Origin: Escherichia phage HY126
Reading direction: 5' to 3' (one strand)
Sequence record: PP658200.1
DNA: 64,000 bases
The translations under genes were made by a program, and so were the position numbers. The notes under the pieces are model-generated. The model saw only the letters and a program-made list of their open reading frames with translations. It was not told where the DNA came from and searched no databases. Position 1 is the first letter of the stretch, and each line of letters starts with the position of its first letter. Below are positions 4,974 through 63,877 of the stretch, in pieces.

Positions 4974-5002
4974 TTTAACTCCTTAGTTGATTTGATAGGA
5001 CT

Positions 5003-5032
5003 ACTATACTATAGTCCATCTATAATGTAAAC
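5003..5032 (-). promoter_or_regulatory. T4-early-like promoter upstream of sp
   Basis: Minus strand GTTTAC - 18 nt - TATAGT; spacer region carries the recurrent GATAGGACTA palindromic element. Confidence 0.5.
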
Positions 5033-5346: not shown

Positions 5347-5715
5347 TTAGTTAAATTTGTTTAAACGTTCAATACACTGGACGTAGTTATTCGCGATTTG
5401 TTTCTGGGTAGGCTCATTACCAGTTGTTTCAACATAGCGAATGAATGCGATTTCAGTAGCCTGTAGACAATGTTCTTTAACGCGTTGTTCTTTTGACAAT
5501 GCTACAGTATCAGAGTCACGATAACGTTGAGCATGGGCATCAGCTTGAATCATTCGATTACCTACAGTAACCGGGTCTTCCACTTCAACTTTAGGTTGTT
5601 CATACTGTTTAACATTCGGATTGTAAATCAGTTGGCCGACGTTATTAGGAATAAAGCCATGGGCACCACATCCTGTTAATCCAAATACCATTGCTAAAGC
5701 GATTAATTTTTTCAT
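5347..5715 (-). CDS. predicted lipoprotein (122 aa)
   Basis: Signal peptide with lipobox LTGC (MKKLIALAMVFGLTGC). Confidence 0.7.
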   Translation of the reverse strand: MKKLIALAMVFGLTGCGAHGFIPNNVGQLIYNPNVKQYEQPKVEVEDPVTVGNRMIQADAHAQRYRDSDTVALSKEQRVKEHCLQATEIAFIRYVETTGNEPTQKQIANNYVQCIERLNKFN

Positions 5716-5775: not shown

Positions 5776-5988
5776 CTATTTTAAACTTTTGCGAAATTTG
5801 CGTTTTTCTTGACGAATCTGTCGTTTAGTCGGACGTACAGCAAATTTAACGAAGTCCACTTTGCCGTGTGGAAACTTTTCAGATGCTTCACAGTCCATCA
5901 TTAGTTCCCATCCTTCCAGAATAAGAGCTTTCCATTGTGTAGTTGATGCAAATTCGTATGTTGATGGTTTAAACACAGTTGAATACAT
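5776..5988 (-). CDS. small basic protein, VRPTKRQ-motif family (paralog c)
   Basis: Start refined to MYSTVF (GAGGAT SD); C-terminus FAVRPTKRQIRQEKRKFRK shared with two ORFs near 33790-34564. Confidence 0.5.
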   Translation of the reverse strand: MYSTVFKPSTYEFASTTQWKALILEGWELMMDCEASEKFPHGKVDFVKFAVRPTKRQIRQEKRKFRKSLK

Positions 5989-6499: not shown

Positions 6500-6550
6500 T
6501 TCTCCAGTAGTTGATAGGTCTATAATAACACAACTACTGGAGAAGTAAAC
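6500..6550 (-). promoter_or_regulatory. early promoter embedded in 14-bp inverted repeat that pairs with the SD
   Basis: Minus strand GTTTAC-TTCTCCAGTAGTTG-...TATTAT...-CAACTACTGGAGAA-CAAAATG; halves at 6500-6513 and 6531-6544 are perfect complements; downstream half contains the SD. Confidence 0.55.
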
Positions 6551-6925: not shown

Positions 6926-6991
6926 AATGTTTTCCTCTTGGTTTGTGTAAGTACATCATATCATGCCTAGAGGAAGATGTAAACCCCGAAA

Positions 6992-7016
6992 GGAGACCGA
7001 AGTCTCCTTTTTATTA
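6992..7016 (+). terminator. plus-strand intrinsic terminator
   Basis: AGGAGAC-CGAA-GTCTCCT hairpin followed by TTTTATT on the plus strand; no U-tract on minus strand. Confidence 0.5.
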
Positions 7017-8456
7017 AAATTTTAACTCATTGGCTAAGCTATCTAGGTCAGCACGTGTTGCTTTGGCTTTACCTACGCGTTCCGTACGATTCACCTCTGC
7101 CTGACGCATCTGAGCACCTGCATTTTCATTTACTGTGTTAGATGTGTTCATGCCTTCTTGCTCAATCTCAATCCATTTCTGGTTGCCTTTACGTACACCC
7201 ATCAGGAATTTATTCCACTTATTCTTATCGCCGTATCGTGATTTGATTTGTTTGATAAGTTGTTGTTCAGCTTGTGCAAGTTCTTCGGTTTCAATTACAG
7301 CCAACATGAAATCTGCCGTTGCTGGTAAACCTGCTGATTCTGCGATATCACTCATGTTCATGTCTGAAGCATCCCATGCTGCACGTCCTACTTGAGCTGC
7401 AGTCCATAGAACTGTTTCAGATTCTACTGCTAATGCACGAAGTTCTTCTGCGATAGCTTTAACTAATGTGTAACTATTTTCAGTGTAAACTCTGATACGA
7501 CAAGACCCACAAATACCTAAGTAATCAACCATGATTACAGATGGCACAAAGTTCTTCTTAAGTTTTAACTCATTAAGCAATGCACGAAATGTATTAGCAT
7601 TAGCTCCACCAGTAGGATACTGCTTAACTACTAAACGTCCTAATGTGGATTTTGAACGCCATTTTTCCATCTTGGCTTTATATTCAGCATAAGATACGTT
7701 ACCATCATCGATATCGTCGAGCGATACGTCAAGCATGTTTGCATCTATACGCTTAGCACAAACTTCTTCAGCCATTTCCATAGAAATATAAAGAACATTA
7801 TGACCTGTTTGAAGATAATCTGCAGCAAGTGAACAAAGGCCTAAAGATTTACCAACGTTAACACCAGCCATTAAAACGTTTAGTGTACCTGTTTCAGCAC
7901 CACCTTTAGTGATTTTATTCAAAATGTTTAATTTGAACGGGACCTTACGTGCTTTGTTCAGATAAGAAAGCCAGCGTGCTTCATAGTCTTCCATCCAGTC
8001 ATGCCCAACATAACTATCAAACGAAATTGAAAGTGCTTGACGCATAATATCAGGAATAGCTCCTACGTCAGGCATTTTCTTGTTACGTTGTTCTGGAGGT
8101 AGTTCAGCATTAGACTGAATCTCAATGATTTTGGATGTAGCGTTATACATCGCTTTTTGCTGGACATATTTCTCAGTTTCTTTAACCAACCATTCATGGT
8201 CTTCAGGAGTATCAGCCAATTTTTCAATTAGATCTGAAGTTCCTTTATATTCGGCTTCAGTTAAAGAACTGTTATCTAAAGCCACCTTTAATGCATTGAT
8301 AGATGGCATTGCATTATATTCGTTAACGTGGCTCTTTATAATTTTAAAGACGTTTTTTGCCGGTCCACGCTCAAAATACTCAGAATCCATATAAGGCCAG
8401 ACCTTAGAAAAATAAGCCTGGTCATATACGAGATGAGACAAAATAATTTCTACCAC
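7014..8456 (-). CDS. 41: DNA primase-helicase gp41 (DnaB-like)
   Basis: 480 aa; near-identical to T4 gp41 as recalled (MVEIILSHL..., Walker A GVNVGKS, C-terminal ANELKF); start may be GTG. Confidence 0.95.
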   Translation of the reverse strand: MVEIILSHLVYDQAYFSKVWPYMDSEYFERGPAKNVFKIIKSHVNEYNAMPSINALKVALDNSSLTEAEYKGTSDLIEKLADTPEDHEWLVKETEKYVQQKAMYNATSKIIEIQSNAELPPEQRNKKMPDVGAIPDIMRQALSISFDSYVGHDWMEDYEARWLSYLNKARKVPFKLNILNKITKGGAETGTLNVLMAGVNVGKSLGLCSLAADYLQTGHNVLYISMEMAEEVCAKRIDANMLDVSLDDIDDGNVSYAEYKAKMEKWRSKSTLGRLVVKQYPTGGANANTFRALLNELKLKKNFVPSVIMVDYLGICGSCRIRVYTENSYTLVKAIAEELRALAVESETVLWTAAQVGRAAWDASDMNMSDIAESAGLPATADFMLAVIETEELAQAEQQLIKQIKSRYGDKNKWNKFLMGVRKGNQKWIEIEQEGMNTSNTVNENAGAQMRQAEVNRTERVGKAKATRADLDSLANELKF

Positions 8457-28761: not shown

Positions 28762-28824
28762 GATATTTTCCTCATTTTAAGACGATAGGAAGATAATAAC
28801 ATGTCTTCCTATCGTTGTACATTA

Positions 28825-29713: not shown

Positions 29714-30012
29714 GGCTTAATTTCCTTCGCAATTGAACAGAAGATACCACGGTCACAAAGCATTTCACCAATTTCTGGATATTTGATTGAACGGTACCAA
29801 ACATCCAGGCTTGAAACTCTGGTTATCTGTATTGCATTACCATTGACAGAATAGTACTGGTCGACCTTAATTTCTTTATCTTCAATTGTCATTTTATTTT
29901 CCTCTATAGTAGATGGTTTAATCTTAACACATCTATTGAGGATGTAAACTGTTTTATGAAAATATTTTCGATTTGAGAGGGGCACAAGGAGATAGTGAAG
30001 TGAAGATTCCAA
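29710..30012 (-). CDS. hypothetical protein (100 aa)
   Basis: Minus ORF, ATGA-coupled. Confidence 0.5.
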   Translation of the reverse strand: MESSLHYLLVPLSNRKYFHKTVYILNRCVKIKPSTIEENKMTIEDKEIKVDQYYSVNGNAIQITRVSSLDVWYRSIKYPEIGEMLCDRGIFCSIAKEIKP

Positions 30013-36694: not shown

Positions 36695-36992
36695 AAAGTT
36701 TTTAATGTTATCGCGAGCTACAGTAGAAGATAATAAACGAGAACGTTTGAACCAATGAAGCAGTGTCCCTAATGAATGAGAATACGCATTCTGAGTATCT
36801 TTACAGATATGATTTTCTTGGCCTGTGTATGTACCAAAATCGCGAAGAATACCACTTACTACAACTCGGTGTGGAACATCAAATCCTAATGAACCAGAAG
36901 CACGTTGGGCATGAACGTTAGCGATAAGACCTGCAAAATAATCAATGTAATGTGAACGTGTCGTAATATTTTCCTCTCGTTAAGATAGAAAG

Positions 36993-37022
36993 ATTATACT
37001 CCAACCATCCTTGGTTGTAAAC
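36993..37022 (-). promoter_or_regulatory. conserved hairpin-promoter element (copy 1)
   Basis: Minus strand GTTTAC-AACCA-AGGA-TGGTT-GGAG-TATAAT; 27-bp identical to the copy at 37989. Confidence 0.5.
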
Positions 37023-37026
37023 TGAT

Positions 37027-37962
37027 TTATGATTTTAATGCATTCATTGCGTTAAAAAGTTTAGAGTACTGCAACTGGAGCTTGGTAACTACTTGTTGAG
37101 CATCACGAAGCTTAGCTTGTGCTTTGTCAAGTTCAACAGACAGTTGGTCCACAGTGGCTTTGATTTGATTATAATAGTAATCTTCGGCAGGAAGAAGACC
37201 GTTAGAGATTTCCAGTTTAGTCGACGGTGAAGTGTATATAGATGGAGCAGTAAAATATGCACCTTGAACTTCAGCATTGCCAATTGGGGTTGTAGTAATT
37301 GACGCTTCGAACGTTGCATTTTCCTTTTTAAGATTTTGATAGTATTCAGAGTCTTTGTGCCACCATGGCGCAGGAACCTTTTTACCAATAGATACACGAG
37401 CCTGGATAGCGATATGGCCCTTATTCTTGATAGGGTTGATAATATTAAGCTCACGAGAATAAATTGCTTTAATCTGGTGGATATTATCACCTAAAACTTC
37501 CAACGCTTGATGGAATACACGAGCAACGTTATCATTCTTAGGTTTATACGTAAGAGTGAACTCGTTCTCACTGATAACCATGATTTCTAACTTATCGTAA
37601 GTATATTTCAAATGTTTCATGTTAATTGCTTGAGGACGAATACGAGAAGCAATGGCCATCAGATTGTTAAGGTTATTCCTGAACTGCTTAGCGAAATATT
37701 GCCCTTCACCGCCAATACAAAAATTACGAAGTTTCTGTTTGGCTAATAAACGGCTGAACTCACCATTTTTAATGAACTCTTTAACGGGTGTGTTAGTAAC
37801 GCATTCAAATTGAGTAAACTTACGAGAATTAATCCCATAATATGAACAGATTTCCTCAATCTCTTCAGGAGTCTTTACAGGCATACGGATAGGATTAGGT
37901 CCTGGGGTATATGCGTTCGAGGTAAATTCTTTGATAAGTTCTCTACGTGTAATAGAAGCCAT
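37027..37962 (-). CDS. coiled-coil protein, second tandem paralog (311 aa)
   Basis: Minus ORF starting MASITRR with GAGGAA SD; C-terminal coiled coil; same upstream element as its neighbours. Confidence 0.6.
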   Translation of the reverse strand: MASITRRELIKEFTSNAYTPGPNPIRMPVKTPEEIEEICSYYGINSRKFTQFECVTNTPVKEFIKNGEFSRLLAKQKLRNFCIGGEGQYFAKQFRNNLNNLMAIASRIRPQAINMKHLKYTYDKLEIMVISENEFTLTYKPKNDNVARVFHQALEVLGDNIHQIKAIYSRELNIINPIKNKGHIAIQARVSIGKKVPAPWWHKDSEYYQNLKKENATFEASITTTPIGNAEVQGAYFTAPSIYTSPSTKLEISNGLLPAEDYYYNQIKATVDQLSVELDKAQAKLRDAQQVVTKLQLQYSKLFNAMNALKS

Positions 37963-37988
37963 TTTATATTCCTCATGTTGAAAAATTT

Positions 37989-38018
37989 ATTATACTCCAA
38001 CCATCCTTGGTTGTACAT
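37989..38018 (-). promoter_or_regulatory. conserved hairpin-promoter element (copy 2)
   Basis: Identical 27-mer (…ACAACCAAGGATGGTTGGAGTATAAT) upstream of 37027-37962. Confidence 0.5.
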
Positions 38019-39013
38019 CATTCCTTAAGAAGTTTTACTACCTGAATAAGATTAGCTCGTTCTGTTTTATTTTTACTGTTTAAGCCTGCTAATCGTGAGA
38101 TTTCATCGTCAGTCTGTTGAATAGTTACATTAAGTTCGTTAATCAAAGCTTCAAAGTATTTGATTTGCTCAGCATGTTTTGATTCGAATTTCTGAACCGG
38201 AATAACGTCTTGGTTTAGTTCATCAATAAGGTCTTTAAGAGCATCTTCTTGGTTGATATCATATTCAACTTCTTTTATTTCTTCAACGAGCTCGTCTTTA
38301 TATCTAACGTCTTTTAGTCCTGGTGCTGGTCCTGAAATCTCTTCTTTAAGAGTACAAACATATCCAATACGGTATCCAATGCTGTCTCGCTTGATATCAA
38401 CTTCGTCAATAAATCCACAATGTTTAAGACCAGAGCCGATTAGGTCAAAATATCCTTGACGTCGTCCTTCAAACGTTACACGAACTACTAAGACAGTTTT
38501 ACCTGCGACCTTTTGAAGCTCACATTTATAAAAGTCTGTTGAACCTGAATAACGTGGATGAGTTTTAAAGTTCATCTGACGATCTAGGCCCATTTGTAAG
38601 CGTGCTGATACGGCCATAAAACGTGTTTGGTTCTCGTTAAGATGTGCAACAATCCATTTCAAAGGCATTTTACACTGTTCACGGCCGAACAAATCAGTAC
38701 GTCCTAGATTACGCAGGATGTTGTTAGAGTTAATCATCGACAGAACGTTAAGTTTATTCAGCGCGCTGAAGATTCCATCAGCCATTGATTTTCCGTAACC
38801 TTTACACGCTTTAATAAGCGCTCGCGGTAGATTAGTATAGATTTCAGATGGCATATGAAAATCAAATTTACTAGTCAGTAATTGATGAACTTGGATAGCA
38901 ATTTGCTCATAATTAAGTGCTCTGCGATCATTATGGTCTTTAAACCACACTTTAATCTGTGAAGCACATAAACCGTTAATTTCATGTTTTACCGCATCAG
39001 ATGTAATGCTCAT
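38018..39013 (-). CDS. coiled-coil protein, third tandem paralog (331 aa)
   Basis: Minus ORF starting MSITSD; C-terminal coiled coil; upstream variant element ACCCA-AGGA-TGGGT with compensatory base changes. Confidence 0.6.
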   Translation of the reverse strand: MSITSDAVKHEINGLCASQIKVWFKDHNDRRALNYEQIAIQVHQLLTSKFDFHMPSEIYTNLPRALIKACKGYGKSMADGIFSALNKLNVLSMINSNNILRNLGRTDLFGREQCKMPLKWIVAHLNENQTRFMAVSARLQMGLDRQMNFKTHPRYSGSTDFYKCELQKVAGKTVLVVRVTFEGRRQGYFDLIGSGLKHCGFIDEVDIKRDSIGYRIGYVCTLKEEISGPAPGLKDVRYKDELVEEIKEVEYDINQEDALKDLIDELNQDVIPVQKFESKHAEQIKYFEALINELNVTIQQTDDEISRLAGLNSKNKTERANLIQVVKLLKE

Positions 39014-39603: not shown

Positions 39604-39629
39604 GTTTTACCTCCAGTAGTTGATAGGTC

Positions 39630-39659
39630 TATAATATCATAACCATAGACCTTGTAAAC
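39630..39659 (-). promoter_or_regulatory. T4-early-like promoter
   Basis: Minus strand GTTTAC - 17 nt - TATTAT; -10 flanked by inverted repeat AGGTCTAT / ATAGACCT. Confidence 0.5.
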
Positions 39660-41089: not shown

Positions 41090-41185
41090 TTCGTTTCGAT
41101 AGGTCTATAATAACATATCCTAAAAGCATGTACACCACTTTTTTAAATATTTTAACCCCCTAAAGGGACCCGAAGGTCCCCACAT

Positions 41186-41467
41186 TTACTTATCGCACTT
41201 AGCAACATAATTAGGCATATCACAGAATACGGAGCGAGTAACTACTCGGCCCTTTGACCATGCTTCAGTTGCTTGTCCGGCGGTGCTATTAATATAGCTT
41301 GATCTAATGTTCTCAATACCCTGAGAATGTGATGCATTTACCGAACCATTAGAAGGCCCAGAAGACTGGTTACCACCAGCTCCTGCACTACCGCCAGCAG
41401 CACCCGTGGTAGCACCAACAGAGAACGCCATCATTACTGCGAATAAACCAATTACTAATTTTTTCAT
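41186..41467 (-). CDS. secreted Gly/Ser-rich protein (93 aa)
   Basis: Signal peptide, low-complexity Gly/Ser region, two C-terminal Cys; TATAAATA late promoter upstream. Confidence 0.55.
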   Translation of the reverse strand: MKKLVIGLFAVMMAFSVGATTGAAGGSAGAGGNQSSGPSNGSVNASHSQGIENIRSSYINSTAGQATEAWSKGRVVTRSVFCDMPNYVAKCDK

Positions 41468-43679: not shown

Positions 43680-43813
43680 TTTACCATACTCGTTTCAATA
43701 AGATTCACTATGCCGTTTACCATGTTATAAGTAAACATCGGATAATTGTATTGTACTACAACATAAGCGATAAGCAAAAGTTTCATTTTGTTCTCCGTTT
43801 GTTTTGATAGGAC

Positions 43814-43844
43814 TACTATAACATAGTCCTACCAAGATGTAAAC
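43814..43844 (-). promoter_or_regulatory. T4-early-like promoter with palindromic GATAGGACTA element
   Basis: Minus strand GTTTAC - 18 nt - TATAGT; -10 flanked by TAGGACTA / TAGTCCTA. Confidence 0.5.
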
Positions 43845-44080: not shown

Positions 44081-44240
44081 ACATTTGCAATTCGGTGTGG
44101 GCTTCAGCCATCTTTTTCATAGCTCTGTTAATGTCGATGTCTCTATCTTCGCAACCATGAGCATTTTCCCAATCAGATACCGCATTAGCGTACTCTTCAA
44201 TCAAAAACATTAACTTAGAAATTTTTTCTTTACGTGTCAT
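44061..44240 (-). CDS. hypothetical protein (about 59 aa)
   Basis: Start refined to MTRKEKISKL with GAGGAGAA SD. Confidence 0.45.
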   Translation of the reverse strand: MTRKEKISKLMFLIEEYANAVSDWENAHGCEDRDIDINRAMKKMAEAHTELQMYVNEIM

Positions 44241-44267
44241 AACGTTCTCCTCTAGTAAGTAAGGACT

Positions 44268-44296
44268 ACTATAACACAACCTGAGGAGAAGTAAAC
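44268..44296 (-). promoter_or_regulatory. early promoter with SD-complementary -35-proximal box
   Basis: GTTTAC-TTCTCCTC-…TATAGT…-GAGGAGAA-CGTTATG; the 8-nt box after -35 is the exact complement of the SD. Confidence 0.55.
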
Positions 44297-44309
44297 TGCT
44301 AAATGCCAA

Positions 44310-44336
44310 AAAGCCCCAACCATAAGGAAGGGGCTA
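44310..44336 (-). terminator. intrinsic terminator downstream of rI
   Basis: Minus strand GCCCC…GGGGC hairpin followed by U5; near-duplicate of the terminator at 60725-60752. Confidence 0.65.
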
Positions 44337-45479: not shown

Positions 45480-45668
45480 TTAGTCCTTAGTTAAATTTTC
45501 TAAATATGTTTCTAAATCATTTTCAGCTTTATCGATAGATTTTACTAATTCGTAGTATGTTTCAGCATCTCCATAATCCGAAGCCAATTCAAAAGATAAA
45601 TCTCGTTCTAAACTAATAATTTCGCTGATTAAAAATCGTATTTCATTCTTTTGTTCGCGAGTAATCAT
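45480..45668 (-). CDS. hypothetical acidic protein (62 aa)
   Basis: Minus ORF. Confidence 0.45.
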   Translation of the reverse strand: MITREQKNEIRFLISEIISLERDLSFELASDYGDAETYYELVKSIDKAENDLETYLENLTKD

Positions 45669-45871
45669 AAGGAATTTATATAATCAATAAGTTCTTGTTC
45701 TTTATCGTCGAAATCTTTACACAGTTCTTCGTATTCGTCGGTATTAAAAGGACCGCATTCATCGCAAACTTTTTCCAATTCACTATTTTTATCCATAACT
45801 TCGTGAATAAGAGAAAACAGTCTGTCTTTTTGTTCTTTACTTAAACTCATAACCATGTAACCTTTAAGCAA
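45665..45871 (-). CDS. hypothetical acidic protein (68 aa)
   Basis: Minus ORF, ATGA-coupled. Confidence 0.45.
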   Translation of the reverse strand: MLKGYMVMSLSKEQKDRLFSLIHEVMDKNSELEKVCDECGPFNTDEYEELCKDFDDKEQELIDYINSL

Positions 45872-46074
45872 TATTCTTCTACATGTTGTTTACGACCTTT
45901 CTTATCAATAAAGGTATATTCAACGAATGTTCCAATATAGTCTTTATCTACATCATGTGGACTATTAATTGGGCATTTAGTACGGCAAATGCGTTCCCAT
46001 TGACGAATAATTACTGCCTTATTCTTTGGGTCATACGGATGTGGATAATGTATATTCATAATAATGGTTCCCAA
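45847..46074 (-). CDS. hypothetical protein (75 aa)
   Basis: Minus ORF; start context uncertain (overlap). Confidence 0.45.
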   Translation of the reverse strand: MGTIIMNIHYPHPYDPKNKAVIIRQWERICRTKCPINSPHDVDKDYIGTFVEYTFIDKKGRKQHVEEYCLKVTWL

Positions 46075-49897: not shown

Positions 49898-50069
49898 ATT
49901 ATTTCTCTTAAGGTTTGGGCCATTCCGTGGCACATGTTAGGTCCTTCGACTCGCTATGTAAACCCATTACCGCATTGCGCTCGACCTTATTACAGGTTGG
50001 AAAAGGTACATCACTCAGAGGACTCGACGTTCATGAGGAGAGGTTGCGTTTCCCTTTATTAGGCAAGAA

Positions 50070-50399
50070 TTATACTCTAGGCTTTTGAGCTTGTTTGGTA
50101 TTGGATTCCCATGCAGCTTTGGTAATTTTGTTAGCGGCATAACCAAAGGCATTAGATAGAACACCTTTAGAGTTGAATACATCCAATCCAATAAGTACAC
50201 CGGCTGCGTTAAATTTAGGAGCAAAGTATGCATTAGTTTTAGAAAGAGCTTTTTTCAATTCAGGGTCTTGAACCAAACCATCAAAAACGCCTTTACTATT
50301 TACTTTATATGTTACTTTGGGATTTTTACCTTCTTCGATAGCAGCTTTCTGTTCCGCAGATAATGTAACTTCAGTGATAAACTCTTGATACGTTTTCAT
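50070..50399 (-). CDS. internal head protein (IPII/IPIII-like)
   Basis: N-terminal capsid-targeting-sequence-like MKTYQEFITE as in T4 internal proteins. Confidence 0.7.
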   Translation of the reverse strand: MKTYQEFITEVTLSAEQKAAIEEGKNPKVTYKVNSKGVFDGLVQDPELKKALSKTNAYFAPKFNAAGVLIGLDVFNSKGVLSNAFGYAANKITKAAWESNTKQAQKPRV

Positions 50400-50424
50400 T
50401 TTGTTCCTATTGTTTTAATTTATG

Positions 50425-50739
50425 TTATTCTTTAGGGAAGTTTTTAGAGTATGCATCATAAAGTTTATTACCGATGCGACGGAAGACTTTAGCTGCAAAA
50501 CGGTTTTCAGGGTTTTTAATCATGATTTGCATCATGTAAGTTCCTGCATCCGAAAGAGCTTCTTCATAGTACCCATTAATTTCTTTAAGAGTCCTACGTT
50601 TACCACCAGGACCATCAACAGTAATTTTCCATTTACCTGTAGAAGTGCGGCTAGGTGGCTCAACTTGTTCAATCCAAATATAACCACCTTCAACGCGTTG
50701 GTTGGCGGATTCTGCAATAAATTCTTTATACGTTTTCAT
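50425..50739 (-). CDS. internal head protein (IP-like)
   Basis: N-terminal MKTYKEFIAE capsid targeting sequence. Confidence 0.7.
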   Translation of the reverse strand: MKTYKEFIAESANQRVEGGYIWIEQVEPPSRTSTGKWKITVDGPGGKRRTLKEINGYYEEALSDAGTYMMQIMIKNPENRFAAKVFRRIGNKLYDAYSKNFPKE

Positions 50740-50802
50740 TTTTGTTTCCTTGGTTGTTTTGATAGAGTAATTATACCATATTAATACTTAAGCGTAAACA
50801 AT

Positions 50803-51063
50803 TTAAGCTTTACCGCCAGAAATAATTCCGAAGTTGTTAAAATCGTATCCAATATCGTCAACATCTACTTTAGGGCTTGCTACAACATAAGCAATTTCAC
50901 TACGTTTTGCATAGGTGTTGATTTCTTTACCATCGCCACCTAAGAAAAAATACCCATTACGTTTTAATGAGCCAAAGTCTTCCGCATCACCAATGAAAGC
51001 TTTAACTTTAAATTTAGGACCTTTGGCATCTGCTTCAGCGATAAATTCTTGATACATTTTCAT
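50803..51063 (-). CDS. internal head protein (IP-like)
   Basis: N-terminal MKMYQEFIAE capsid targeting sequence. Confidence 0.7.
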   Translation of the reverse strand: MKMYQEFIAEADAKGPKFKVKAFIGDAEDFGSLKRNGYFFLGGDGKEINTYAKRSEIAYVVASPKVDVDDIGYDFNNFGIISGGKA

Positions 51064-51483: not shown

Positions 51484-51510
51484 AATTTCCTCCAAGTAGT
51501 TGATGAATGT

Positions 51511-51540
51511 ATAGTATCAAAACCCTTGGAGGAAGTAAAC
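51511..51540 (-). promoter_or_regulatory. early promoter with SD-sequestering inverted repeat (denV)
   Basis: GTTTAC-TTCCTCCAAG-…TACTAT…-CTTGGAGGAA-ATTATG; 10-nt halves complementary, downstream half contains SD GGAGGAA. Confidence 0.55.
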
Positions 51541-51541
51541 A

Positions 51542-51823
51542 CTATTTTTCTGAAGCGCCTGAAATATATTTTTCAAGACGTTGTTTCATCAGCGAGCCGT
51601 TCTTAGCGATTTCTTCCGGTTTATCGCACATACGTAACAAGGCTTCAAGCTTAGCGATATCGCTGGTACGTTCAAATTTGCGAGTATCTATCTTACTAGC
51701 AAGTTCAGAAATACGTGCTAGTAGACTTTCGGCTTCAACCAAAGCTGCACCTAGCTTAGTTGCAAATGTGTCAGTAGCTTCGTTAAGAATAGATTCTGAT
51801 AAAAATTCACTATAGGTTTTCAT
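51542..51823 (-). CDS. internal head protein (IP-like)
   Basis: Start refined to [10 protein letters not shown] (CTS-like); ATGA-coupled to lysozyme gene. Confidence 0.6.
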
Positions 51824-53042: not shown

Positions 53043-53515
53043 TCGGTAATAAAACGTTCAACTTCATTATTCTTGGCTTTTATCTTGTCTTTATGTTCTT
53101 GTAAACTACTTTTAATAAGATTAATAATGATGCCTACAGTACCTCCACCAATTATACCGCCAATTATACTTACGATAGTAGATGCTAATAAGATAGCAAT
53201 AATATCAACAAAACCGAAAGAACTCACCTTAGTACTAAAAAACCACACTGATGGTACAAATATAATCCATCCTGTTATCCATTGACACTTATTGAAAAAC
53301 TTTTCAAGCTCAGCTTGAGTTGTTCGTATTACTTCATCGATAGGTTGATAACCATTAATATGTCTGTTCACGATAATACCTGCTGGCTGGTCGATTTTAA
53401 ATTCTTGGCAAATACGTTTCACTAAGTAGGATGGACATCCTGTCCAATCCACTGAATAGTACGAAATACCTTCATTGCCGTCGTCAATATTAGACCAATA
53501 TGTTTTGTTAATCAT
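53024..53515 (-). CDS. membrane protein with Gly-zipper segment (163 aa)
   Basis: Hydrophobic/Gly-rich helix (…IVSIIGGIIGGGTVGIIINLI…). Confidence 0.5.
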   Translation of the reverse strand: MINKTYWSNIDDGNEGISYYSVDWTGCPSYLVKRICQEFKIDQPAGIIVNRHINGYQPIDEVIRTTQAELEKFFNKCQWITGWIIFVPSVWFFSTKVSSFGFVDIIAILLASTIVSIIGGIIGGGTVGIIINLIKSSLQEHKDKIKAKNNEVERFITECRNLR

Positions 53516-54201
53516 TACCAGCCTTCCATAGGGAATTCCAGATAAACTTGAGCGTTGACACGAATTTCGTTGGTAATCTTTTTAACTCGGTCTGTATTAC
53601 GAGATACACGTCCGAACCAACGCCATCCATTACTAATTGCACGAGAACCAGTGTGCCATGTTTGCCAATCAAACTGAAGAAGAGTACGGTCTGGAGCTTC
53701 CCATTTCTCTAGTTCGCCTTTTTCGATTTTTTCGAGGACTTCTTTGTGCCACTGGCGATAGATAAGTTCGCCATCAGGAATCTGACTGAACTCTGCAGTT
53801 CCTGTTGCAAAATGAGTAGGACACACATCAGCGTTAACAAGACCAAGAATATGTTCAGAATGGTAACGAGGGTTGTCATAATCAGGTTGTCCTGCAGTAA
53901 TAAAGTGTTGACCAACCGGAATATCCGGGCGTGGTACATCATCATGGTGATAACCTGGGATAGCAGGGTACCAACCAGGCATCAGCATGTGGACTCGTGA
54001 ATCAAATACAACCTGGTCGGTGTTCCAATCATCAGGCAAGTTCATGATGAAGCTGCGAGTAATAGGACCACCGTTATTATAAGCAAATTCTAAACTACAG
54101 TTGAAGAACATAGGCTCGTTTTTAATCTGGTCATTTTTAATCGCATGAGCAAAACCACCTACTGCACGAGCTTGACTATTAAACACTTTAGAACTATTCA
54201 T
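53515..54201 (-). CDS. hypothetical protein (about 228 aa)
   Basis: Start refined to MNSSKVF with GAGGAAAATAAT SD. Confidence 0.55.
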   Translation of the reverse strand: MNSSKVFNSQARAVGGFAHAIKNDQIKNEPMFFNCSLEFAYNNGGPITRSFIMNLPDDWNTDQVVFDSRVHMLMPGWYPAIPGYHHDDVPRPDIPVGQHFITAGQPDYDNPRYHSEHILGLVNADVCPTHFATGTAEFSQIPDGELIYRQWHKEVLEKIEKGELEKWEAPDRTLLQFDWQTWHTGSRAISNGWRWFGRVSRNTDRVKKITNEIRVNAQVYLEFPMEGW

Positions 54202-54202
54202 A

Positions 54203-54508
54203 TTATTTTCCTCGACATTCTTTAACAAAATTTTCTAAATCTGTTGATTCAATAGCTTTTTTACGAGCTTCAGCGTGTTCTTCTTCAGTTAATCTACGTT
54301 TAAACTTGACCCAAACATTATGGTCGAAACCTGTTGTCGCGTATAATAACAGAGCACCAACGAATAACAAAAACGGTGATAAAAATACACAACCAGGAAC
54401 ACCGTCCATGCCATAGGCCTTTTGTAATACTGCAACAGAAAGCACAGCATAAAAAGGTGATGTAAGTATCGTTAAAAGGCCAATTCGGTTGGTTTCGGAT
54501 AATTTCAT
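54203..54508 (-). CDS. membrane protein (about 101 aa)
   Basis: Start refined to MKLSETNRIG with GAGGAGAA SD; hydrophobic helices. Confidence 0.5.
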   Translation of the reverse strand: MKLSETNRIGLLTILTSPFYAVLSVAVLQKAYGMDGVPGCVFLSPFLLFVGALLLYATTGFDHNVWVKFKRRLTEEEHAEARKKAIESTDLENFVKECRGK

Positions 54509-54565
54509 AATATTCTCCTCATGTTTAATAGGACTACTATAACATAGTCCTATCAGTTTGTACAC

Positions 54566-54784
54566 TTATTTTGACATTTCTTCGATGTCACGACGATACC
54601 CATCACGAACTTCACGAAGAGCTTCAAGGCCACACATAGGCTCGATACCAGTAATGTGAACTTGATTAATCTGATACTCTACATCTTCTAACTGAGCGAA
54701 AACATAACGACGTTCTGCTGCACAACCAGGTTTAGCTTTACCGAAACGTTTATTCAAAGTAGTCATTTTTATATCTCCATTCAC
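54566..54784 (-). CDS. hypothetical protein (72 aa)
   Basis: Minus ORF with own promoter. Confidence 0.5.
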   Translation of the reverse strand: MNGDIKMTTLNKRFGKAKPGCAAERRYVFAQLEDVEYQINQVHITGIEPMCGLEALREVRDGYRRDIEEMSK

Positions 54785-54803
54785 TCATTTGTTTTGATAG
54801 GTC

Positions 54804-54833
54804 TATAGTATCAACAACTACAGACCTTGTAAA
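54804..54833 (-). promoter_or_regulatory. T4-early-like promoter
   Basis: GTTTAC - 18 nt - TACTAT; -10 flanked by AGGTCTGTAG / CTATAGACCT. Confidence 0.5.
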
Positions 54834-54846
54834 CAGTTTTGCGAAA

Positions 54847-56083: not shown

Positions 56084-56099
56084 TTAATTTGATAGGACT

Positions 56100-56129
56100 A
56101 CTATAACATAGCCCTATCTTGTTGTAAAC
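56100..56129 (-). promoter_or_regulatory. T4-early-like promoter with palindromic GATAGGACTA element
   Basis: GTTTAC - 18 nt - TATAGT; palindrome gataggactactataacatagccctatc. Confidence 0.5.
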
Positions 56130-56340: not shown

Positions 56341-56613
56341 TTAGCAAGTGTGAGAAGATGCGATCCAACCACCAGTTTCGAGGCTTAGGTTGTAGTCGTA
56401 TTGGTAAACGTCGGCCCATTCAGCATAGCCGTTTTTTGTACAACGTTCAAGGTCGGCTTTAAGCTGTCCGGGTGAATGATATGTTCCACCCATACCATAA
56501 GCTGGATACAAGTCGAATGTTGTGTTTTGTTTATCAGCAATTTCTTTGGCAGCCTCAATAGCTGCATAGATTTTTGCTACAGCTTCAGCCAGTTCGGTTT
56601 GTTCTTTAGACAT
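56341..56613 (-). CDS. small protein, C-terminal W-x-SS-x-x-C family (paralog 2)
   Basis: 90 aa ending GGWIASSHTC. Confidence 0.5.
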   Translation of the reverse strand: MSKEQTELAEAVAKIYAAIEAAKEIADKQNTTFDLYPAYGMGGTYHSPGQLKADLERCTKNGYAEWADVYQYDYNLSLETGGWIASSHTC

Positions 56614-56622
56614 AGTGATTCC

Positions 56623-58872: not shown

Positions 58873-58913
58873 ATTATTACCTTTCAATTGGTGGTTTATT
58901 ATCCAATGAGAGC

Positions 58914-58942
58914 ATTATACTCTGCTCTCAAGAGTTTGTAAA
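58914..58942 (-). promoter_or_regulatory. T4-early-like promoter; member of a 45-bp repeat pair
   Basis: TTTACA - 17 nt - TATAAT with -10 flanked by GAGAGCA / TGCTCTC; about 45 bp nearly identical to 28493-28521 region. Confidence 0.5.
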
Positions 58943-59170
58943 TTATTTTTTAATCAAATTGACATAAAACTTGGCGTCTTCGGGGTGCATGCCTTCACAG
59001 TATTCTTCAACCATGAACTTCTTAACAGCTTCATAAGGACCGCTCAGATTAAGCTCAGTTGTCCAGAACTTGGAATCTTGGACTGAATCGATACGAACTT
59101 CAGGGTGTCGGTTGCGAATAACTTCTTCGGTGTATTCATAATCAACGACATCAATACTAACTTTAGCCAT
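58943..59170 (-). CDS. hypothetical protein (75 aa)
   Basis: Minus ORF. Confidence 0.5.
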   Translation of the reverse strand: MAKVSIDVVDYEYTEEVIRNRHPEVRIDSVQDSKFWTTELNLSGPYEAVKKFMVEEYCEGMHPEDAKFYVNLIKK

Positions 59171-59216
59171 TTTGTTTTCCTCTTGATTTGATAGGACTAC
59201 TATAACATAAACTTAC

Positions 59217-59381
59217 TTAGATGTAAATTATTTCAACGTCACCTTTAGCTGCTTTATAACCTTCAGCCCAAGATACAACAGAGTTTTTATCTGAGGATTC
59301 AAATTCAGGCATTGGGCTTTCGCCAATGTTCACACAGTATGTTTCTTCATTTTCGTCAAACCAAATAATTAAAGTAGTCAT
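59217..59381 (-). CDS. hypothetical protein (about 54 aa)
   Basis: Start refined to MTTLIIWFDE with GGAGTAAACAAA SD. Confidence 0.45.
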   Translation of the reverse strand: MTTLIIWFDENEETYCVNIGESPMPEFESSDKNSVVSWAEGYKAAKGDVEIIYI

Positions 59382-60001: not shown

Positions 60002-60032
60002 AACTTTTTCAGTAAGTTATAGACCCCCTAAT

Positions 60033-60052
60033 GGGGACCGAAGTCCCCATTC
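60033..60052 (-). promoter_or_regulatory. UUCG-tetraloop hairpin after gene end
   Basis: Minus strand AAUGGGGAC-UUCG-GUCCCCAUU directly after the stop of the upstream gene; no U-tract; near-copy of the hairpin at 19431. Confidence 0.45.
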
Positions 60053-61056: not shown

Positions 61057-61401
61057 TTATTTTGACATATCATCAATTTGTTCTCTACGTCTACGCCATA
61101 GATTAATTACTTCATCAACACATTCAGCATTTGGTATATGACGACAATAGTATAGTGATTCGCGTTTCTGGAACCGATGTTGTAATGGAATTTCGTTTAA
61201 AAGGTCTTTACGGTCAAAGTATTCAAAACTAGTTAACCCGGAACGGTTTTTAAGAAACTTCCAATGTCCGAATTCATTTTGAAAATAGACATAATCAGCA
61301 TGCTGATACAGCGAATTAATTAACCTATCGGAAATAACTGTTTCACGTTCGTTAAAATAAAACGTTAAGTCATGAACTACCAGATAAATATTGCCTTTCA
61401 T
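61057..61401 (-). CDS. hypothetical protein (about 114 aa)
   Basis: Start refined to MKGNIYLVV with GAGGAAAAT SD. Confidence 0.5.
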   Translation of the reverse strand: MKGNIYLVVHDLTFYFNERETVISDRLINSLYQHADYVYFQNEFGHWKFLKNRSGLTSFEYFDRKDLLNEIPLQHRFQKRESLYYCRHIPNAECVDEVINLWRRRREQIDDMSK

Positions 61402-61480
61402 ATTTTCCTCACTTAAAGTTGGTGCCTCTAGAAAGATTTGAACTCTCACCATTAACCTTAGAACGATTATATGCTATCCA

Positions 61481-62146
61481 TTACACTATAGAGGCAATTA
61501 AATTATTTACAATATCTTCTTTATAAACTTCAGCATAATGAAGTTCATATATTTCCCATCCTAATGATTTTATAATATCATGGCGTTCTTTATAATAAGG
61601 GGCCAAAATCTTTTTCTTAGGATTGGAGTAATGTTGGTTTCCATTAACTTCAATAATAATCTTTTTATCTATTAAAGCAATATCCGTGCAATACGCTCGG
61701 TTTTTAACCGGTTGGTATTCTTCAATAAATGAAATTCCGTTTTCTATTAATTTAGATTTCAAAAATTCACAAGGCACAGATTTAAATTTTGTATTTTTCT
61801 TCCAAGGATGTTTATCAGGGTTTTCATTCAACCATTTTTTCCGAGCATTAGATATTTTTATTCTAGATTCCTCAGAGTGTTCTCTACCTAATGAAGCGGC
61901 TGACAATTTTTGTCTAGTCTCTTCCGAAATTACTACAGGGACACCAGTCTTTTTAGATACAACATACTGGTTTAAATTACCTGAAGCTATACGTGCTTTA
62001 TTCATTGCTGCAATGGCTGATTTAGAACTTTCTTTATACAATTCCAATTTAGGGTTGGATTTACACCATCTAGTGTGGTTAGCCATCCATCCTTTAGGTT
62101 TATTAGAAATATCAAATTCCATATTACAATGTTTACAAATGCTCAT
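61481..62146 (-). CDS. homing-endonuclease-like protein (NUMOD3 motifs + Vsr/DUF559-like nuclease domain)
   Basis: Two NUMOD3-like repeats (SEETRQKLSAA, SEESRIKISNA), N-terminal Cys/His cluster, C-terminal …IIIEVNGNQH…KERHDIIKSLGWEIYEL… like DUF559/Vsr endonucleases; start refined to MSICKH. Confidence 0.65.
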   Translation of the reverse strand: MSICKHCNMEFDISNKPKGWMANHTRWCKSNPKLELYKESSKSAIAAMNKARIASGNLNQYVVSKKTGVPVVISEETRQKLSAASLGREHSEESRIKISNARKKWLNENPDKHPWKKNTKFKSVPCEFLKSKLIENGISFIEEYQPVKNRAYCTDIALIDKKIIIEVNGNQHYSNPKKKILAPYYKERHDIIKSLGWEIYELHYAEVYKEDIVNNLIASIV

Positions 62147-62220
62147 TACCAATTATCTCCTATAAAATATAGGAGTATTTATTATTTGGATAGAGCACTT
62201 AATTTACTTCGTTTAAATTA

Positions 62221-62292
62221 CTGGCGCACTTGGACTCGAACCAAGATAAAGGAGTTAACAGCTCCCCGTAATAACCTTTATACGATGCACCA
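62221..62292 (-). tRNA. tRNA, anticodon GUU (Asn); CCA not encoded
   Basis: Folded by eye: 7-bp acceptor (one G-U), U8, A14, GG in D-loop, anticodon loop CUGUUAA, T-arm CUUGG-UUCGAGU-CCAAG. Confidence 0.55.
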
Positions 62293-62298
62293 TTTGTT

Positions 62299-62373
62299 TG
62301 GTGACCCTGGCTGGTTTCGATCCAGCTACCTATCAGTTATGAGCTGACAGCTCTCCCATTGAGCTACAGGGCC
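62299..62373 (-). tRNA. tRNA, anticodon CAU (Met or Ile2), encoded CCA
   Basis: Folded by eye: GGCCCUG acceptor, D-arm GCUC/GAGC, anticodon loop CUCAUAA, T-arm GCUGG…CCAGC, 3' ACCA. Confidence 0.75.
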
Positions 62374-63623: not shown

Positions 63624-63830
63624 TTACTCACCTTTTGCAATTTTATCCATAACGATAGCGATTAAGCCGATTAGAAATGCTACTACCAATGAGATAGAAT
63701 TTTCTGTTGTTGTCAGTAGTCCACAAATGAATCCTACAAACATCGAAAAACTAAAAGCCATTGAAGCAATTACTACAGCAACATTACGAATCAGTTCAGC
63801 GCGTTTCATTTTATTTCTCCATTTACTCAT
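63624..63830 (-). CDS. small membrane protein (68 aa)
   Basis: Two hydrophobic helices; GGAGAAATAAA SD. Confidence 0.5.
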   Translation of the reverse strand: MSKWRNKMKRAELIRNVAVVIASMAFSFSMFVGFICGLLTTTENSISLVVAFLIGLIAIVMDKIAKGE

Positions 63831-63847
63831 TTTGTTTTGATAGGACT

Positions 63848-63877
63848 ACTATAACATAGTCCTATCAGCGTGTAAAC
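63848..63877 (-). promoter_or_regulatory. T4-early-like promoter with palindromic GATAGGACTA element
   Basis: GTTTAC - 18 nt - TATAGT; palindrome gataggactactataacatagtcctatc. Confidence 0.5.

Follow-up and report, generated by a model that had tools for sequence, protein, structure and literature searches.

A promoter-embedded hairpin in the early region of Escherichia phage HY126 resembles the promoter–stem-loop cassettes of T4-type phages

Escherichia phage HY126 (sequence record PP658200.1) carries in its early region four near-identical copies of a 28-bp inverted repeat, GATAGGACTACTATAACATAGTCCTATC. This 28-mer probably forms the central part, from about −25 to +3, of a strong early promoter of the sigma-70 type that folds as a hairpin, and the whole would form a PeSL-type cassette (early promoter plus stem-loop) that serves as a recombination joint. 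The element is real and non-random, and elements of its kind have already been described in T4-type phages. Promoter-like anatomy, dyads that are specific to individual promoters and indel junctions inside the cassettes were all observed directly in the sequences.

The 64,000-nt stretch that we analysed (the window) comes from an RB69-like T-even phage of the genus Mosigvirus, with 96–97% identity to Mosigvirus genomes for 25-kb and 6-kb queries. It spans the early region with the nrdC genes, tk, vs, regB, internal-protein genes, denV, e, nudE and tRNA genes. Because the early-region genes all lie on the minus strand, we read the element on that strand, where the order is GTTTAC, 5 nt, GATAGGACTA, TGTTATAG, TAGTCCTATC, leader, Shine-Dalgarno sequence (SD) and ATG.

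The 28-mer and its promoter context

The 28-mer matches at 43806-43833, 54527-54554 and 56091-56118 with one mismatch each and at 63839-63866 with none, all in a single orientation, and no copies were expected from 100 shuffles. This confirmed the four copies listed in an earlier note on this DNA, two coordinates of which were one base off. The perfect dyad symmetry claimed there was not borne out: the 28-mer consists of two 10-bp arms, GATAGGACTA and TAGTCCTATC, around an asymmetric 8-nt loop, giving an inverted repeat of 10–12 bp, and because the arms flank such a loop, the copies match on a single strand only.

Each copy reads G-T-(T/G)-TAC, 5 nt, GATAGGACTA, TGT-TATAGT, AGTCCTATC, an A-rich leader, an SD and the ATG of a small open reading frame (ORF). 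The spacer from the −35 to TGnTATAGT measures 17–18 nt, the SD and ATG follow 26–38 nt past the −10, and TTTACA-17-TATAGT scored 9–10 of 12 for the four copies in a consensus promoter scan, so that the description as a promoter element, from a GTTTAC-like −35 to SD and ATG on the minus strand, stands. The distance of 17–18 nt from GTTTAC, which had been given for the element, is that of the −10 hexamer; the element itself begins 5 nt past the −35. With the start placed from spacing only, the left arm runs from about −25 to −16, the extended −10 forms the loop, and the right arm covers −7 to +3. Only 0–5 nt separate the upstream gene's stop codon from the −35, so the intergenic space is wholly promoter plus leader, and the 25 nt upstream average 70% A+T versus 63% for the window. 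The ORFs behind the four copies (about 36 to 101 aa) are hypothetical in relatives and lie in the nrdC-tk-e-tRNA early region. The parts of the copy shown above, P54564, and the other three copies are as follows.

54560-54565, minus strand: −35 GTGTAC of P54564, immediately preceded by the upstream ORF's stop codon (54566-54568)
54545-54554, minus strand: 5′ arm GATAGGACTA of P54564, within the promoter spacer, about −25 to −16
54536-54544, minus strand: extended −10 TGT-TATAGT of P54564, equal to the hairpin loop; its last T (54536) doubles as first base of the 3′ arm
54527-54536, minus strand: 3′ arm TAGTCCTATT of P54564, −7 to +3, with a closing G·U
About 54529, minus strand: putative start A of P54564, placed by the spacing rule only
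54506-54520, minus strand: SD GAGGAG (54515-54520) and ATG (54506-54508) behind P54564, belonging to the 101-aa ORF 54203-54508, a homologue of RB69ORF133c
43806-43844, minus strand: copy P43843; −35 GTTTAC at 43839-43844, hairpin at 43806-43833, arms GGTAGGACTA / TAGTCCTATC with one G·U
56091-56129, minus strand: copy P56128; −35 at 56124-56129, hairpin at 56091-56118, arms GATAGGGCTA / TAGTCCTATC with one G·U
63839-63877, minus strand: copy P63876; −35 at 63872-63877, perfect 10-bp arms at 63839-63866, located 5′ of the tRNA.4 homologue

All thirteen sites listed in the earlier note proved real, among them two partial copies and seven sites with a GGTCTA variant, which are early-promoter-like and have TATAGACCTATCAA in common. 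The partial copies, retrieved with a looser search, are:

4994-5032, minus strand: degenerate copy P5031; left arm GATGGACTA one base short, leaving a bulge (4994-5020), right arm intact
59190-59228, minus strand: half copy P59227; right arm (59190-59209) and −10 intact, left arm non-complementary, own duplex −1.9 kcal/mol

A pattern search of the minus strand of the window found about 27 sites with a GTTTAC-like −35, a 17–18-nt spacer, TAnnnT and an SD, at which the ATG lies 26–41 nt past the −10; the exceptions are P34642 (49 nt) and P37021 (no ATG found). The 12-mer TTGATAGGWCTA, the reverse complement of TAGWCCTATCAA, has 18 matches in the window with at most one mismatch versus 0.69 expected. 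Read on the gene strand, TAGWCCTATCAA, which comprises the right arm and the leader start, is found at 15 promoters, the remaining three matches being left arms, and it is kept at promoters with or without a complementary spacer. T4 and VR7 promoters have a similar CTATCAAC start region, and the passages on early promoters in the RB69 genome paper describe these as C-rich at −3 to −1 (Nolan et al. 2006, PMC1524935). The right arm therefore belongs to the T-even early promoter/leader consensus, consistent with the C-rich −3 to −1 of RB69.

The copies differ from one another in the 5 nt that separate the −35 from the left arm and in their leaders. Because these stretches differ, recent duplication is disfavoured as the source of the near-identity, which is better explained by constraint on almost every position of the 28-mer (−10, start region and pairing); occasional gene conversion between copies may add to it. 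Among variants, the G·U of P56128 also occurs in four relatives and one IMG/VR contig, and in the P54564 copy of phage SA79RD three nucleotides (TAG) of the 3′ arm are duplicated. A scan of IMG/VR with a 17-mer yielded eight loci that we took as extra variants. A metagenome scan for left-arm variants with the 14-mer TGTTATAGTAGTCC returned 120 stretches, chance matches of which none had a usable promoter context, and an Rfam search found three tRNAs only, with no match for the hairpin.

Spacers complement their own downstream segments

For every promoter we computed the duplex of its spacer with the segment that runs from the −10 end to the ATG of that promoter (own duplex), and the duplexes with the corresponding segments of the other promoters. 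Because helix registers differ between promoters, this own-versus-permuted test was preferred to fixed-register covariation counts. For 26 promoters of the window, the own duplex averaged −11.0 kcal/mol versus −7.5 (sd 0.6) for permuted partners, and none of 20000 permutations reached the own value; shuffled spacers gave −5.4 kcal/mol. The 15 early promoters of the homologous T4 region behaved similarly (−11.6 versus −7.0 kcal/mol; 0 of 20000), as did 12 promoters of VR7, genus Gaprivervirus (−10.6 versus −8.0 kcal/mol; 16 of 20000). The suggestion that the symmetry exceeds the needs of a promoter was thus upheld, since pairing of the spacer with the downstream segment is promoter-specific in HY126, T4 and VR7. 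Such dyads are general to T-even early promoters, not peculiar to HY126.

The same numbers bear on the simplest alternative, that only a promoter consensus is at work and the dyad arises by chance where a T/G-rich spacer stands next to a conserved −10/start region. The right arm is indeed kept at 15 promoters whatever the left arm, and the C-rich −3 to −1 was already noted in the RB69 passages cited above; with permutation counts of 0, 0 and 16 in 20000 and the gap between own and shuffled spacers, we nevertheless reject a pure consensus as extremely unlikely. The element does match the generic T-even early-promoter consensus, an outcome that the earlier note had named as speaking against its idea if no further symmetry was present, but the extra symmetry exists in T4 too.

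The dyads fall into two classes. In class A, which includes the four 28-mer copies, the spacer pairs with −7 to +5 and the −10 lies in the loop. In class B, a spacer starting with TTCTCC or TTCCTC pairs with the SD region of the downstream gene, as at 6549, 47925 (regB), 44295, 51539 (ipII), 29948 and 6983. Arm sequence and register vary between promoters of the window, loops range from 6 to about 30 nt, and a dyad is lacking altogether at about ten early promoters. Where the right arm carries the GGTCTA variant at 39658 and 54833, the left arm carries the matching change. Representatives are:

28783-28822, minus strand: P28821, class A with unrelated arms, CGATAGGAAG / CTTCCTATCG around the −10
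58908-58943, minus strand: P58942, class A with unrelated arms, GAGAGC / GCTCTC around TATAAT; insertion point of the extra ORF of SA79RD
39610-39659, minus strand: P39658, GGTCTA variant with matching left arm, AGGTCTAT / ATAGACCT
54785-54834, minus strand: P54833, GGTCTA variant, AGGTCT / AGACCT; flanks ORF 54566-54784 together with P54564
47880-47930, minus strand: P47925, class B promoter of regB; spacer TTCTCCTCTAGTTG pairs with the SD-containing CAACTAGAGGAGAA
6500-6554, minus strand: P6549, class B, TTCTCCAGTAGTTG / CAACTACTGGAGAA; differs from P47925 by two swapped base pairs and still pairs
51485-51544, minus strand: P51539, class B promoter of ipII, TTCCTCCAAG / CTTGGAGGAA; T4 orthologue TCTCCTGTAG / CTACAGGAGA
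29890-29953 and 44240-44300, also 37960-38022 and 54785-54838, minus strand: further SD-pairing regions

At orthologous promoters of T4 and HY126 (tRNA.4, a gene of the mobD region, and ipII), the dyad is kept and the sequence is changed. The tRNA.4 promoter has ATAGGGT / ACCCTAT in T4 versus GATAGGACTA / TAGTCCTATC here, and the mobD-region promoter has AGTTGACAAGATT / AATCTTGTCAACT in T4 versus TTGGTAGGACTA / TAGTCCTATCAA here. In the T4 sequence that we analysed, dyads with quite different arms lie at about 15616, 17616, 22965, 23351, 27900 and 31466, and in that of VR7 at about 12596, 24377, 34392, 34725 and 35707.

This variation weighs on the proposal that the inverted repeat is an operator whose half-sites are bound by a dimeric phage or host protein controlling early promoters, for example in early shut-off. 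The arms do bracket the −10, a classic operator position, the four copies have the same half-sites, and the mechanism of T4 early-promoter shut-off is not completely understood (PMC3014915). A constant half-site and spacing were, however, found neither between promoters nor between phages: other HY126 early promoters have unrelated arms in other registers with loops of 6 to about 30 nt, T4 and VR7 use other arms at orthologous promoters, and three of the four copies break the symmetry by a G·T that pairs only in RNA. A single protein reading one sequence cannot account for this, nor for the roughly ten early promoters without a dyad. We therefore disfavour the dimeric-regulator site of the earlier note, whose arm sequence, arm position and loop length would all have to vary between promoters, and consider an operator highly unlikely.

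Promoter cassettes at indel junctions

Between the window at 38-64 kb and six Mosigvirus genomes (SA79RD, ST2, G2285, EP32a, RB69 and LH01), 10 of 39 distinct homology breakpoints fell within promoter footprints, a 5.4% share of the sequence (binomial 3e-5); these ten touch 9 of the 16 promoters counted there. The junction sequences tell more than these counts. Three indels have their junction in a promoter or leader, the first of which concerns the following cassette:

54566-54784, minus strand: cassette of a 72-aa ORF, present in HY126, SA79RD, EP32a and LH01, absent from RB69, ST2 and G2285

P54833 and P54564 are 269 bp apart here, and in the three phages without the ORF the single promoter is a chimera whose upstream flank and −35 come from P54833 and whose hairpin and leader come from P54564. 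Secondly, the ORF145c homologue (about 59217-59378), which lies between P59440 and P59227 (213 bp apart), is absent from LH01 with the junction inside the leader; thirdly, P58942 is where SA79RD carries an extra ORF (SA79RD_142), the crossover being at its −35. Homology to relatives sets in within the −35, spacer or −10 of P47925, P41134 and P63876, upstream of which the genes are wholly different. Of the three roles proposed in the earlier note, a recombination hotspot that shuffles early gene cassettes is the best supported, given these indel junctions inside promoters; structure in read-through RNA remains plausible as a role of the 28-mer.

Exchange also occurs elsewhere. Other shared breakpoints, at 45486-46066, 50000-51033, 53482-54192 and 56346-56619, lie at gene boundaries or inside ORFs without an early promoter; ORF 56341-56613 is replaced in relatives, so promoter cassettes are not the sole exchange points. 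The segments flanking tRNA genes (61083-62302) are among the most rearranged between relatives.

These properties recall the PeSLs (promoter-early stem-loops), which combine an early promoter with a stem-loop, mostly between the −35 and −10 or overlapping the −10, end in an SD and start codon, and occur preferentially in hyperplastic regions and at indels (Arbiol et al. 2010, PMC2839356). In RB49 and phi1, both terminator activity and mini-circles of PeSLs were shown experimentally (PMC2839356). Like these, the HY126 cassettes run from an intergenic stop codon through an A/T-rich stretch, early promoter, stem-loop and SD to a start codon, occur in many genomic copies before small hyperplastic-region ORFs, and lie at the boundaries of indels and replacements among close relatives. 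All five PeSL traits that we tested on sequence evidence were present, namely promoter, stem-loop, stop-to-start-codon layout, hyperplastic location and indel association. The differences are that RB49 and phi1 have a near-perfect TTGACA-N17-TATAAT and G/C-rich stems (GGGG...CCCC), whereas HY126 has GTTTAC and AT-rich stems drawn from the start region of the promoter.

Comeau et al. (2014, PMC4122927) later extended PeSLs to T4/PST, whose promoters follow TTTACW-N17-TAYWAT and whose stems follow AGNA-loop-TCNT. HY126 agrees with these in phage subgroup, promoter consensus and gene shuffling, and AGGA...TCCT fits their stem form. For the T-even internal-protein (IP) locus, PMC2839356 cites elements from Repoila et al. 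(1994) that are based on T4 early promoters and whose stem-loops are weaker and AT-rich. RB69-type phages were not analysed in PMC2839356 or PMC4122927, and RB69 is unmentioned in PMC2839356; the wider literature was not searched. The RB69 genome paper predicted 57 early promoters with GTTTAC at −36 to −31 (Nolan et al. 2006, PMC1524935), which are the equivalent sites in a close relative of HY126, and its early-promoter passages cited here make no mention of a dyad or stem-loop.

What is new here is that RB69-type phages join the T4-type phages with promoter-plus-hairpin cassettes doubling as recombination joints, that concrete cassette indels are given with their junctions, and that the early promoters of three T-even genera complement their own start region or ribosome site, with structure kept and sequence not; this three-phage result is a modest, testable extension of published work. 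The cassettes help explain the mosaic of small ORFs between nrdC and the tRNA genes in phages that are otherwise 96–97% identical, many of them in therapeutic use or proposed for it. They also matter for annotation, since hairpins of this type are called rho-independent terminators in at least one GenBank record despite having no T-run and an embedded promoter.

Predicted RNA structure and its possible role

We infer promoter activity, the start site and an RNA role of the hairpin. The composite cassette of about 75 bp comprises the upstream stop codon, the −35 GTTTAC, the spacer, the extended −10, a conserved start region (TAGTCCT-ATCAA), the A-rich leader, SD and ATG. The middle 10 nt of the spacer complement −7 to +3, turning the extended −10 TGnTATAGT into the loop. 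RNA made from the local promoter would begin within the 3′ arm, so that the hairpin could not form, whereas read-through RNA would fold a 12–13 bp hairpin just past the upstream stop codon, where it might act as an attenuator or as a barrier that stabilises RNA ends. The cassettes as such would be short homology patches at which small early ORFs get inserted, deleted or swapped between related phages.

The predicted RNA folds of the four copies are hairpins of 12–13 bp whose loop has 6 nt, with energies of −15.5 to −18 kcal/mol (z −3.5 to −4.4); three of the four carry a G·U that would be C·A on the opposite strand. A strand test, by G·U versus A·C counts and by sense versus antisense energies, leaned towards sense RNA in Mosigvirus and T4, where the sense strand had the stronger pairing in 16 families of the 20 decided (22 in total, with two ties) and cross-pair controls were without bias; VR7 leaned the other way, and the test as a whole favours neither RNA nor DNA clearly.

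An established precedent is offered by T4 e, soc, 49 and I-TevI, in which the 5′ strand of an RNA helix harbours a late promoter, as shown experimentally (PMC3014915). There, the helix forms in long transcripts from upstream and not in the short ones that begin at the embedded promoter, and the class B promoters, such as those of regB and ipII, are predicted to behave alike. At seven promoters (6549, 29948, 38017, 44295, 47925, 51539 and 54833), the predicted unpaired probability of the SD fell from about 0.35–0.8 in local RNA to at most 0.02 in read-through RNA. Pairing of spacer with SD across loops of 20–30 nt fits RNA only, and this modelled class B pairing is the best indirect argument, suggesting a role at the RNA level. 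The HY126 promoters differ from the e/soc/49/I-TevI type in being early rather than late, and the four 28-mer copies leave the SD uncovered. Averaged over all promoters, the drop in SD accessibility did not reach significance relative to a control with shuffled upstream sequence (0.34 versus 0.42, p 0.08). SD hiding was accordingly rejected on predicted accessibility as the role of the 28-mer hairpin, although it holds for a different subset of promoters. Our best guess for the 28-mer class is an attenuating, pausing or end-stabilising structure that would follow the upstream stop in read-through transcripts.

A related alternative is that the hairpin is a factor-independent terminator of the upstream gene that overlaps the next promoter incidentally. 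Each hairpin stands directly after a stop codon, and the stem-loop of phi1 PeSL211/210 lowered lacZ about as much as the rrnB T1 terminator (PMC2839356). Moreover, in the SA79RD record the counterparts of the P54564, P54833 and P56128 hairpins (5521-5557, 5794-5832 and 7088-7121) are annotated, by WebGeSTer, as rho-independent terminators. The G+C-rich hairpin and T-run of an intrinsic terminator were not found, however: the stems are AT-rich with 3–4 G-C pairs, the tail is CAAAACAAA or TAAACATG without a T-run, and a consensus terminator scan called none of the 28-mer hairpins while calling others nearby. Because of the missing T-run we rejected a canonical intrinsic terminator, and because HY126 also has standard GC-rich, TTCG-loop, T-run terminators ahead of some other promoters, we consider the terminator reading unlikely overall.

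These separate GC-rich hairpins precede some early promoters at about 1150-1190, 6990-7020, 41140-41190, 44300-44335 and 60005-60035 (minus strand); three have a TTCG loop and several are followed by a T-run, e.g. GGAATCC-TTCG-GGATTCC-TTTTTTTT. A class A hairpin is found at none of the five promoters with such a hairpin versus 9 of 21 others, numbers that are too small to test and hint that an embedded hairpin may replace an upstream terminator.

The symmetry could also act at the level of DNA, with a hairpin or cruciform stimulating slippage or strand exchange, or serving as target of a structure-specific recombinase, and with the overlap with the promoter being secondary. Indel junctions within or beside dyads would fit this, as would the lack of a clear RNA preference in the strand test once VR7 is included; Arbiol et al. 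speculated on a protein targeting the stem-loop, and one mini-circle crossover was mapped within a loop (PMC2839356). Class B pairing over loops of 20–30 nt, in turn, suits RNA and not cruciforms, and no single point takes the crossovers, which fall at the −35, the spacer or the leader, as plain homologous exchange predicts. Furthermore, 10-bp arms with loops of 6–8 nt extrude poorly as cruciforms. We consider a DNA-level function of this kind quite unlikely.

Several observations weigh against the 28-mer being a promoter-embedded hairpin of the PeSL type with a role in RNA. The T4/PST stems are placed just upstream of the promoter (legend in PMC4122927), not across the −10, whereas in HY126 and in our re-analysis of T4 the stem spans the −10 or reaches the SD. 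Predicted SD accessibility of the four copies is not consistently lower in read-through RNA (own versus read-through: 0.67/0.55, 0.50/0.45, 0.47/0.17 and 0.37/0.51), and because of this the clearest RNA-level rationale is limited to class B. In VR7 the antisense strand pairs slightly better, which brings the strand tally to about 17 versus 7, and the T-run that is missing from the tails counts here as well. Finally, with gene junctions as the null, a breakpoint was found at 7 of 11 promoter junctions versus 17 of 47 without a promoter (one-sided p 0.09); exchange points are expected between genes anyway, and the enrichment over other gene junctions is weak.

More tentatively, and with the odds rather against it, early-promoter hairpins may represent a general T-even design in which structure is conserved, not sequence, and which marks transcripts by their start point. 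If so, the fold of read-through RNA would hide the ribosome site (class B) or form a stable end, pause or attenuation structure (28-mer class), and the principle of the e/soc/49 late promoters would extend to dozens of early genes. Such a design could contribute to the distinction between immediate-early and delayed-early expression, and the need for both arms would explain why the cassettes stay similar enough to recombine.

Further features of the window

Three promoters, P63876, P54833 and P41134, have a common extended leader, AAATGAGT(A/G)AAT(T)GGAGA(A/T)ATAAAATG (63807-63835, 54795-54822 and 41095-41122, minus strand). It includes an upstream ATG without an SD, whose frame matches that of the real start at P63876 and differs from it at P54833.

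The promoters at 36990-37026 and 37985-38022 (minus strand), about 1 kb apart, agree in 26 consecutive nt of spacer and −10 (ACAACCAAGGATGGTTGGAGTATAAT), which contain a small internal CCAA/TTGG dyad. At P37021 an SD is present and there is no ATG at the usual distance, and a non-ATG start is possible.

Three tRNA genes are located at 61423-61495, 62221-62292 and 62302-62373 (minus strand).

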